From: an uncultured Verrucomicrobiae bacterium
GTDB taxonomy: Bacteria; Verrucomicrobiota; Verrucomicrobiia; Chthoniobacterales; JAFAMB01
Direction of reading: 5' to 3'
Assembly: GCA_963837955.1 (NCBI GenBank)
Contig: CAWIPH010000002.1
Span: 3,040,001 to 3,104,000 of the forward strand
Length of the DNA: 64,000 nt
The position numbers and the translations under genes are program-made. A model generated the notes under the pieces. That model was not told where the DNA came from and searched no databases. It saw only the letters and a list, made by a program, of their open reading frames with translations. Of this stretch, positions 35,270 through 37,344 are shown piece by piece. The number at the start of each line of letters is the position of its first letter. Within the stretch, counting starts at the first letter, position 1.

Positions 35270-35476
35270 GACGCAAACGGCATTATTGTGTGGATCGACC
35301 CTTACTGCAACCGGGTGGATTTGCGGAGGTCACGGATTGGTAGCCTGCGGGCCGCGCATTTGCGTCAACACAAGAGGTTGGATATGCGCCGAGAAGACTC
35401 GTCCCGGAGGGACTCAATGAAAGTAGATGACATGAGCCGACAGCTAACAGCACCCGCTGCTAAACTGTCGGCTCTT

Positions 35477-36589
35477 ATGAATAAATATAACCAGAAAATA
35501 TTGAGCAGTGGCGGCAACGAAGCAAGTGTGATGCAGCATGGCAATCGGGTCCTGAAGTTGGGACTGGATATGCACTATCGGCAGGTGACGGTGGCGATGC
35601 AGGAGGATGGAGGCCGGATCAAGGCTGTGGGCAAGATGAGTCATCAGGCTTTTGGGAGTTGGGTGAACAAGAAGTTGGCTCAAGGCTGGCAGATTGAGAG
35701 CTGTTACGAAGCCGGAGCCAGCGGTTACTGGCTACATCGGCAGCTGGTAGAGCTGGGAGTCAAGAACCTGGTGGTTGTGCCCAAGGCGATGGGAAAGAGA
35801 GGCAAGCAGCAAAAGACCGATCGGCGCGATAGCGCAGAGTTGGTCGATTCGCTGGATCGTTATCTCAGAGGCCAGGATAAAGCCTTGAGTGTGGTGGCCG
35901 TACCCAGTGTTGAACAGGAACAGAAGCGAGCGCTGATCCGCTACCATCGCCAGATCATGGCCGATCGAGGACGCTCTGAGGCCCGAGGTAAAGGCTTACT
36001 GTGTGCCCAAGGGCTCGAAGTCGGAGGCCGCTGGTGGCAGGGCAAAGGGTGGAGAGAACTCAACTCTGATCCCCGGCTCAAAGAGTGGATCAAAGAGCAG
36101 CTAGAAGGCTGGCGCCAGAAGGTATTAAGCGCTGAGGAGCAGCAAAAAGGCTTGCGGCGACGGATCGAAGCGCTGGCTCCGGCGATCCTGCCCAAAGGAG
36201 TGGGCGCCTACAGCGCGGCGGTGTTGGAATACGAGATGAAGGGTTGGAGGCGATTTAACAATCGGCGCCAGGTGGCTAGCTATACGGGTTTATGTCCCGG
36301 CATCCATCTCAGTGATGGCCGAGGCAAAGAGGGGTCCATCAACCGTTGTGGCAATCGGATCGTGCGCTGGAGCTTGGTGGAGATGGTCTGGCGGCTGATG
36401 ATCTGGCAGCCCCACTATGGGCCGGTGCGTCAGCTGGCGGCTGGCATAGTCAAAAGCAAGCGCGCCAAGAGACGCTTGGTAGTCAAAGCGGCCCGGCGTT
36501 TAGCCATTGATTTATGGCGTTTATCAAGCGGACAAACCACGGCCGAAAAACTGGGTTTAGTCCTGCAGACCAATAGGCAGAGCCTCTGA
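35477..36589 (+). CDS. IS110-family DEDD recombinase
   Basis: LGLD, CYEAG and KTDRRD (DEDD); GVG and ASYTGLCP..LSDG..GN; start could be 35432, 35477 or 35531. Confidence 0.92.
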   Translation: MNKYNQKILSSGGNEASVMQHGNRVLKLGLDMHYRQVTVAMQEDGGRIKAVGKMSHQAFGSWVNKKLAQGWQIESCYEAGASGYWLHRQLVELGVKNLVVVPKAMGKRGKQQKTDRRDSAELVDSLDRYLRGQDKALSVVAVPSVEQEQKRALIRYHRQIMADRGRSEARGKGLLCAQGLEVGGRWWQGKGWRELNSDPRLKEWIKEQLEGWRQKVLSAEEQQKGLRRRIEALAPAILPKGVGAYSAAVLEYEMKGWRRFNNRRQVASYTGLCPGIHLSDGRGKEGSINRCGNRIVRWSLVEMVWRLMIWQPHYGPVRQLAAGIVKSKRAKRRLVVKAARRLAIDLWRLSSGQTTAEKLGLVLQTNRQSL

Positions 36590-36599
36590 GGAGGCTCTC

Positions 36600-36810
36600 C
36601 AGCATCAAATCTGTGACTCTCTAGAGTGACTCTTTTGGCAGCAACGGCGCGCGTCTGATACTGGGCTTGGGCTAAAACCCGAAACGTAGATGAGGCCGCT
36701 CGTTGCTGTCCTTTTTCTTTGCTTAATTGCATAAATCACCGTGTTAGGAAGCTCCCCTTCCAACCGATAGAAGCTTAAACCGAGCAATCAATAGAAGCTC
36801 GCGTTGGGAC
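36600..36810 (+). ncRNA. Predicted bridge/seek RNA of the IS110 element (ends approximate)
   Basis: Stem GGCAGCAACG/CGTTGCTGTC (36637-36710) encloses TACTGGGCT, a hairpin and GTAG, matching the target; second stem-loop at about 36760-36808 carries ATAGAAG, the element's right end plus core. Confidence 0.75.
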
Positions 36811-37191
36811 AGCAAACGTTGGTCAGAGGCCAAAAAGAGCAACAAGAGAGCCGCTAAAAACAGCAAGAGATCTAGCGCTAATCGAAAAAGTCTCAGCCTC
36901 CATGATCCGAGCCTGGTAGCGCCGGTTGCAAGCTCAAAGCCGGTCCACAGGTGGCTTGTTGTCCGATCCCGGCTAAAACTAATCCAAACCTTCAAGAAAC
37001 CTTCTTTTGGCGCTGGGTCTTGACAAACTGGGCTTCATAGAAGCCCAGTACGAAGTGCTGGGAAATGGCCCAAAGAGGCGTCCGTCCCGGAGGGACGAAC
37101 GAACCGTTGCCCTTCGCCTCCAACGCAACTTCGCGAGCGCAGACGGTGGATCGATCGTCCCTTCCGGGACGGACACGTCTTTTTAACCTTC

Positions 37192-37344
37192 CCCCGGGAA
37201 AGGCGTTCCAAACGTTGCGCCCTCAAAGCGGCGCTAGAATAGATGCTCGCATTGGATTCTCGGCTGCGACATCGGATCCTCGTGCCCCTCCAGGGCATAC
37301 CGTGTTAATACTAAACCCGGGGTTAAAACCCCGGGCTGAGTCCT
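37192..37344. repeat. REP-like element, family C, continuing at 37850-37870 after the MITE
   Basis: CCCCGGGAAAGGCGTTCCAAACGTTGCGCCCTCAAAGCGGCGCTAGA and AAAACCCCGGG; inverted relative at 58314-58373. Confidence 0.65.

Follow-up and report, generated by a model that had tools for sequence, protein, structure and literature searches.

The element and its insertion site

In the window, by which we mean the whole 64,000-nt stretch of DNA that was analysed, a 1617-bp insertion sequence sits between ...GAAAGTAG on the left and CCCAGTACGAAG... on the right (Table 1). Its non-coding ends are unequal in length, 104 nt on the left versus 454 nt on the right, downstream of the transposase/recombinase gene. 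Comparison with other copies of the repeat that the element interrupts put the left junction at 35426/35427 and the right one at 37043/37044. The last AG of the insertion sequence is the second copy of the core, so that AG stands at both junctions in the window. Of the two GTAGs on the left side, the one at 35340 is a decoy.

Table 1. Features of the insertion sequence, its candidate RNA and the interrupted repeat (positions of the window)
Feature	Position	Strand	Remarks
Left part of interrupted host repeat	35350..35426	+	ends ...GAAAGTAG; last 2 nt (AG) are the core
Insertion sequence, IS110 family	35427..37043	+	1617 bp; starts ATGACATGAGCC, ends GGGCTTCATAGAAG
Left subterminal inverted repeat ATGAGCCGAC	35432..35441	+	7-bp extension before it, core counted on the left
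Conserved left-end hairpin GAGCCGACAG/CTGTCGGCTC	35434..35474	+	compensatory change GACAG:CTGTC to GACAA:TTGTC in relatives
Transposase/recombinase gene	35528..36589	+	GTG 35528 or ATG 35531; 353 or 352 aa
Conserved non-coding RNA region, candidate bridge/seek RNA	36633..36845	+	about 210 nt
5' strand of stem closing the target loop	36637..36656	+	outer 36637-36647, inner 36649-36656
5' target guide UACUGGGCU	36659..36667	+	pairs with top strand AG+CCCAGTA (core and right-flank positions 1-7)
Inner hairpin of target loop	36668..36681	+	
3' target guide GUAG	36686..36689	+	same letters as left flank and core; pairs with bottom strand
Invariant AU after 3' target guide	36690..36691	+	identical to first 2 nt of left end; candidate handshake guide
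3' strand of closing stem	36693..36710	+	36700-36711 alternatively pairs with 36806-36818
Candidate short 5' donor guide AUCACC	36735..36740	+	opposite top-strand core G and left-end positions 1-5
Hairpin P2 of donor multiloop	36743..36764	+	
3' donor guide AUAGAAG, then CU	36767..36775	+	AUAGAAG equals last 5 nt of right end plus core
Hairpin P3	36778..36805	+	loop length variable
GGGACAGCAAACG	36806..36818	+	alternative partner for 36700-36711
TTGACA	37020..37025	+	18 nt from right terminus; in most relatives; candidate -35 of junction promoter
Right subterminal inverted repeat CTGGGCTTCAT	37028..37038	+	followed by 3-bp extension AGA and core AG
Right part of interrupted repeat	37044..37100	+	CCCAGTAC...GTGCTGGG hairpin, insertion point at its 5' base

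Searching the element's own genome with 35300-37100 returned one full copy of the element and about 100 short matches. The short matches fell in two stretches only, window 35350-35426 and 37039-37098, which adjoin each other elsewhere in the genome. When the two flanks were joined into one query, 169 repeat copies of the genome matched it across the junction; the empty site GTAGCCCAGTA, which the preliminary description had restored by removing the element, is therefore real. Insertion was specific for site and orientation at the 2-nt core without further duplication, and all 52 distinct left flanks ended in AG. We conclude that this is an IS110-family element inserted between GTAG and CCCAGTA without duplicating the target, apart from the AG core that both junctions share.

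The target is abundant in this genome. The 11-mer GTAGCCCAGTA occurred 87 times in 5.6 Mb, as compared to about 2.7 occurrences expected, and the commonest form of the site, CAATGAAAGTAGCCCAGTACGAAGTGC, was present in 47 of the 166 copies spanning the 27-nt site window. Each repeat unit measures about 135 bp, and the units are often arranged in inverted pairs, with 83-nt arms that are 83% complementary. Where the repeat is uninterrupted, the right half of the target folds as the hairpin CCCAGTAC/GTGCTGGG and the insertion point lies at its 5' base. “Host REP”, the name given to the targeted repeat in the preliminary description, is a fair one.

The repeat family itself was found at window 35283-35426 and 37044-37200 and at about 166 places in the genome. 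Its copies carry GTCCCGGAGGGAC-type palindromes, often as inverted pairs (REPIN-like), and members of the family also flank related elements in other assembled Verrucomicrobiae genomes.

The recombinase

The predicted protein has the DEDD_Tnp_IS110 N-terminal and Transposase_20 C-terminal domains by which the IS110 family is recognised (PF01548, 29.3 bits against a cut-off of 29; PF02371, 53.3 bits against a cut-off of 21.3). The NCBIfam model NF033542, “IS110 family RNA-guided transposase”, aligned over its full length (E 2e-39) with 135.7 bits, under the cut-off of 140, a near miss that points to a divergent branch. Residues D14, E61, D98, D101 and S262 were invariant in six aligned sequences; L042 and L045, which have stops in the matched frame, were left out of this alignment. 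Judged by position, these residues would be equivalent to D11, E60, D102, D105 and S241 of IS621. The serine motif reads GLCPGIHLSDG, that is GLxPxxxxSDG as compared to the published IS1111 motif GL-P----S(t)G, and the length of 352-353 aa compares with 330-350 aa for IS1111 proteins.

A sequence search of the PDB with the single protein gave no match. With a six-sequence profile of the clade, ISCro4 (PDB 9t56) was the sole sequence touched, in a marginal match (E 0.53) that aligned the GL-P----S motif including its serine with S262. The ten best Foldseek matches in the PDB were the IS621 and ISCro4 recombinases (E 3e-8 to 6e-6, TM about 0.30); the model behind them is of low confidence (pLDDT 51.6, six-sequence input), and the fold matches are a hint only. 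Using tblastn against plasmids we obtained identities of 27-33% to proteins with generic names, the best named relatives being ISSso6 and ISEc45 at 27-31%.

The same genome encodes a set of seven other IS110-family genes, on contig 1 at 349301-350521 and on contig 2 at 1219411-1220631, 1223256-1224476, 2031507-2032727, 1932889-1934108, 3512844-3514063 and 1173230-1174198. Four of these matches have identical scores (258 bits), two are maybe frameshifted and one is a paralog. The paralog is 35.6% identical to the window protein, and its surroundings are free of the RNA motifs of the clade.

A target loop in the downstream non-coding end

The preliminary description had proposed, in the 3' non-coding end, the target loop of a bridge RNA programmed against the host repeat. 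Its stem at 36637-36710 was confirmed: GGCAGCAACG at 36637-36646 pairs with CGTTGCTGTC at 36701-36710 over 10 bp, one of them G-U. Reading of the sequence equally bore out TACTGGGCT at 36659-36667, the inner hairpin formed by TGGG (36668-36671) and CCCG (36678-36681), and GTAG at 36686-36689. In the 454-nt 3' non-coding end, the TACTGGGCT at 36659 was the only exact 9-nt match to the reverse complement of the target. The loop is located 330-380 bp inside the right end rather than at the terminus.

Guides and flanks covary in related elements

We looked for related loci in genome contigs, which yielded 17, and in metagenome contigs, which yielded 80; their proteins were 58-94% identical to that of the window. 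The loop could be parsed between conserved stems in 81 of 98 sources (the 97 loci and the window). At L084 the stems were present and the inner pattern failed parsing.

Right flanks of 7 nt or more were available for 68 loci, and for these we compared the seven non-core letters of the 5' guide with the flank. Full Watson-Crick pairing was seen in 51, and in 58 when G-T wobble was allowed. The remaining 17 loci had six (9 loci), five (4 loci), four (3 loci) or no (1 locus) Watson-Crick pairs. The locus without pairs, L068, has three extra bases that shift the flank; at its right junction an extra AAG stands between the right end and the flank. There were 20 distinct 5' guides. With one representative flank per guide they formed 6.55 pairs on average, as compared to 3.73 (sd 0.27) after shuffling, and none of 10,000 shuffles reached the observed value.

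Similar results were obtained for the 3' guide. It matched the left flank at the two positions outside the core in 53 of 63 loci and disagreed in 10. All seven classes of 3' guide matched their majority flank, and 3 of 10,000 shuffles did equally well.

Position by position, the footprint of the 5' guide is sharp: in 45 distinct guide/flank pairs, positions +1 to +7 paired in 36-43 cases, and position +8 dropped to 9. Among 52 distinct pairs the 3' guide agreed with the flank at -3 in 49 and at -4 in 46, agreed partially at -5 to -7 (32-39, versus 16-26 expected) and showed no agreement at -8. The 3' target guide therefore reaches, in relatives, up to 5 nt beyond the core.

The preliminary description had suggested a check of guide/target covariation across homologs, and in this check the guides changed with the flanks, giving 20 variants with matching flanks. 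Nor did other copies sit at unrelated sites, the observation that it had named as speaking against the proposal. Five full copies in one MAG (L033-L036 and L043) each occupy a different copy of the repeat, with identical position and orientation. The covariation thus supports a bridge/seek-RNA target loop aimed at the host repeat, with guides of 9 nt and 4 nt that overlap on the 2-nt core, and it argues that 36637-36710 is a target-binding loop of such an RNA. From this natural variation of the guides we infer that the element should be reprogrammable.

Comparative fold of the candidate RNA

To obtain a consensus fold and pair counts we aligned 55 distinct sequences of the conserved part. Four helices were supported: the stem closing the target loop, the inner hairpin, P2 and P3. 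In the closing stem, alignment pair 27:76 was C-G in 27, U-A in 26 and U-G in 2 of the 55 sequences, and pair 22:80 was U-A in one. Pair 44:59 of the inner hairpin was G-C in 47, C-G in 5 and U-A in 2. In hairpin P2, four of seven pairs had changes on both sides.

Over all stems, 97.8% of cells were paired and nine pairs had changed on both sides, a level not reached in 500 shuffles; when the partners were slid by 1-3 columns as a control, 36-50% were paired. Three conserved G-U pairs (10:92, 19:83 and 41:62) fit the plus strand only. Folding of the whole 3' end as a single sequence gave no unusual stability (z -1.77), and only the comparative analysis is informative on the fold. A search of Rfam at permissive thresholds over 35300-37150 returned as its sole match a chance snoRNA-like hit (E 0.28); no curated family there covers the RNA.

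Besides their partner in the closing stem, positions 36700-36711 have an equally good one downstream, at 36806-36818. With the latter, 98.3% of cells were paired, and two pairs showed compensatory changes. No such changes were seen in the outer half of the 10-bp stem, which had four mismatches at one pair. The two partners of 36700-36711, 36637-36647 and 36806-36818, may represent alternative states of the RNA.

Two relatives differ in the arrangement of these helices: L123 has a tandem duplication of hairpin P2, and in L091 the donor multiloop is missing from the stretch between P2 and the downstream partner of the stem.

A candidate donor multiloop

A multiloop follows the target loop. Its 3' strand, AUAGAAGCUU at 36767-36776, was invariant in 55 of 55 sequences. 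The right ends of the elements hardly vary, which leaves no room for covariation, and the candidate 3' donor guide is a 7-nt invariant match. A second AUAGAAG, at 36791-36797, was considered as donor guide and rejected; it lies in the variable-length loop of P3 and is absent from relatives.

The candidate 5' donor guide is short. Its register, facing the top strand of the left end, would be C:G(core), A:T2, C:G3 and U:A4; it pairs over 3-5 nt and has a mismatch at position +1. Two independent compensated changes were seen in this register: in one clade (five loci), left-end G3 to A was accompanied by C to U in the RNA, and in L110, left-end A4 to G by U to C. Changes in L112 and L085 were uncompensated. 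A search for a 9-nt guide complementary to the core and left end found no match of 5 nt or more in register.

Donor-binding nucleotides have been located in a multiloop for many IS1111 orthologues (PMC11208160), and the arrangement proposed here agrees with that location. The dinucleotides that follow the two 3' guides deserve separate mention. Position +1 of the target was C in 43 of 45 distinct flanks, and CU follows AUAGAAG. A handshake rule has been described for IS621 (PMC11208158); by analogy, the AU at 36690-36691 and the CU at 36774-36775 would act as handshake guides.

Element ends and a candidate junction promoter

The right inverted repeat of most relatives is GTCGGCTTCAT or CTCGGCTTCAT. 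ATGAGCCGAC matches the reverse complement of GTCGGCTTCAT over 10-11 bp with one indel, and the extensions are AGATGAC and AGA. The right inverted repeat of the window copy carries an additional mismatch, with G where most relatives have C. Its variant, CTGGGCTTCAT, was also found in L031, L032, L048, L049 and L115 and is therefore a trait of a clade rather than private decay.

Because of this C-to-G change, a perfect 10-bp palindrome spans the right junction of the window copy at 37027-37053, ACTGGGCTTC ATA GAAGCCCAGT. Eight nucleotides of the palindrome also match the 5' target guide. At the other end, the conserved hairpin includes the left inverted repeat, and its 3' arm resembles the right end (CTGTCGGCTCTTATGAA).

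Junction promoters (Pjunc) have been described for circular forms in this family (PMC12288879). In a circular form the TTGACA near the right terminus would face the left end and might serve such a promoter, for which the -10 is weak. A scan for promoters and terminators gave one promoter-like site, inside the RNA and overlapping the variable guide, which is no more than shuffled sequences give.

Comparison with known systems

The preliminary description had taken the element for a hybrid, with IS621-like loop geometry and an IS1111-like RNA position. This was not borne out: guide order, RNA position and ends are all IS1111 traits. The IS1111 members tested by Siddiquee et al. (2024) all have the top-strand guide first, and the IS110 member has the reverse order (PMC11187229); in IS621 the bottom-strand guide comes first (PMC11208160). 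IS1111 RNAs are encoded downstream of the transposase gene, and IS1111 ends have subterminal inverted repeats of about 11-13 bp with extensions of 7 bp on the left and 3 bp on the right (PMC11187229). In the present element, read in the direction of the transposase gene, the 5' guide is complementary to the top strand and the 3' guide to the bottom strand. We therefore assign the element, on these features of its organisation, to the regular IS1111-type members of the IS110 family and not to a hybrid, because its RNA is downstream, its subterminal inverted repeats have 7/3-bp extensions and its top-strand guide comes first.

The closest parallels are ISPa11, ISEc11 and ISKpn4 (IS1111; PMC11187229), as judged by their published features. 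Like these elements, the one described here has a long non-coding region downstream with two short target matches, the top-strand one 5', and subterminal inverted repeats extended by 7 bp and 3 bp. It sits in the hairpin of a REP, which is also the target of ISPa11 (PMC11187229).

IS621 shares with it two guides, of 9 nt (5') and 4-7 nt (3'), that overlap on a 2-nt core (PMC11208160; PMC11208158). That core is CT in IS621 (PMC11208160; PMC11208158), and the AG found here reads CT on the opposite strand. As in IS621, the target is a REP, the putative donor-binding part comes second, and the two letters that follow each 3' guide agree with the handshake rule. In contrast to IS621, the RNA is downstream rather than upstream, the top- and bottom-strand guides come in the opposite order with respect to the gene, the donor nucleotides appear to lie in a multiloop instead of a simple internal loop, and the candidate 5' donor guide is much shorter.

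Published work on the family already covers its mechanism, the place of the RNA, the order of the guides, the targeting of REPs and natural retargeting, and the present finding leaves that picture unchanged. A full-text literature search for bridge RNA in taxa with Verrucomicrobi names returned no paper, and the clade seems undescribed. What it offers is a natural series in which recombinases of one clade, at least 72% identical, carry 20 target guides with matching insertion sites. The series displays a sharp guide footprint of 7+2 and 2-5+2 letters, conserved candidate handshake dinucleotides and a putative multiloop donor site, and it could help to choose or engineer IS1111-type recombinases, which are less studied than IS621.

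Interpretation and alternatives

The most likely explanation of these data, with a probability of about 0.88, is that an IS1111-group element at a REP-like site carries a bridge/seek RNA of about 210 nt that sets its insertion, and that a multiloop of this RNA holds the circularised element. The 454-nt right end would encode the RNA on the transposase strand. Its first domain (36637-36710), an internal loop, would set where the recombinase inserts. The second domain would be the multiloop, in which AUAGAAG (right end plus core) and AUCACC (left end) would hold the circularised element. The element's boundaries, how common its target is, the covariation of guides with targets and the stems were observed directly. 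By analogy with ISEc11, ISPa11 and IS621, the RNA would be made, would bind the DEDD/Ser recombinase and would direct strand exchange at the AG core.

We also looked for signs of the RNA in public data. A search of sequencing runs found none with half of the sampled words (best share 0.26). Contigs from one metatranscriptome and two possible RNA libraries contained relatives at 85-99% likeness, among them a 207-nt contig over 36642-36822 with a depth of 68, versus 15-19 in neighbouring contigs. Contig depth cannot rank the parts of the element, as variants may collapse and DNA may be present, and these depths are no support either way.

The complementarity and stems computed here cannot tell RNA from single-stranded DNA, and under one alternative the element end would itself pair with the target, through the guide segments, as single-stranded DNA, like the subterminal guide sequences of IS200/IS605. 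This is very unlikely. The guide in the IS110/IS1111 family is experimentally RNA, co-purifies with the transposase and works in trans (PMC11187229; PMC11208160); in addition, the loop lies well inside the right end and not at the terminus, and the conserved G-U pairs are better tolerated in RNA. Less credible still is a match that represents a captured piece of the host repeat, or chance, and has no targeting role. ACTGGGCT is also present at 37027-37034 in the right end, so the sequence does occur more than once near the repeat; however, the segments correspond to opposite strands, with a conserved hairpin between them, and they change with the flanks in 20 guide classes, surrounding stems staying constant, a fit that no shuffle reached. 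A chance match is ruled out because guide and target covary in the homologs.

Under a third alternative the anatomy is as read above and the window copy is a relic that no longer moves; this is possible, although we think it the less probable state. One full copy and one internally deleted remnant are present in a genome with 87 intact target sites, and the right inverted repeat has the C-to-G change. On the other hand, the frame is uninterrupted and shares 93% identity with relatives, the guides of the window copy match its flanks perfectly, and the inverted-repeat variant is common to five relatives. As the sole full copy despite 87 free sites, and with the extra repeat mismatch, the window copy may be weakly active or inactive. 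An unlikely further proposal is that the RNA toggles between two exclusive folds that gate target and donor binding, combined with slipped recombination at two AG cores of the right end, to which AAG scars and the remnant would be due. In one fold 36700-36711 would pair with 36637-36647 and close the target loop, a short seekRNA-like form; in the other it would pair with 36806-36818 and close the donor multiloop. Such a toggle, if true, would couple target binding to donor binding or act as a gate for them, and it might do the same for the choice between excising and inserting the element. We retain the reading of a bridge/seek RNA that sets the insertion of an IS1111-group element.

A remnant and AAG-containing sites in the same genome

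The internally deleted remnant lies on contig 2 of the same genome at 1542088-1542308 (minus strand) and has the same left junction in a repeat copy. It retains 197 bp of the left end (95% identical) and, after ...ATCAAG, is joined directly to CCCAATACGAAG, the right half of the repeat.

The site GTAG-AAG-CCCAGTA was found in 4 of 164 repeat copies, at contig 1 507846 and contig 2 360746, 3660118 and 3651035. AAG was the only type of insert seen at the site, where 81 copies have no insert, and it equals the last 3 nt of the element. The right end has two AGs 3 nt apart (TAG-AAG), and slipped excision or recombination at these two AGs is a possible source of AAG scars. Three of the four AAG copies belong to one repeat sub-variant, as compared to 28 of 160 other copies, and the AAG copies may be a repeat sub-variant by shared descent rather than excision scars.
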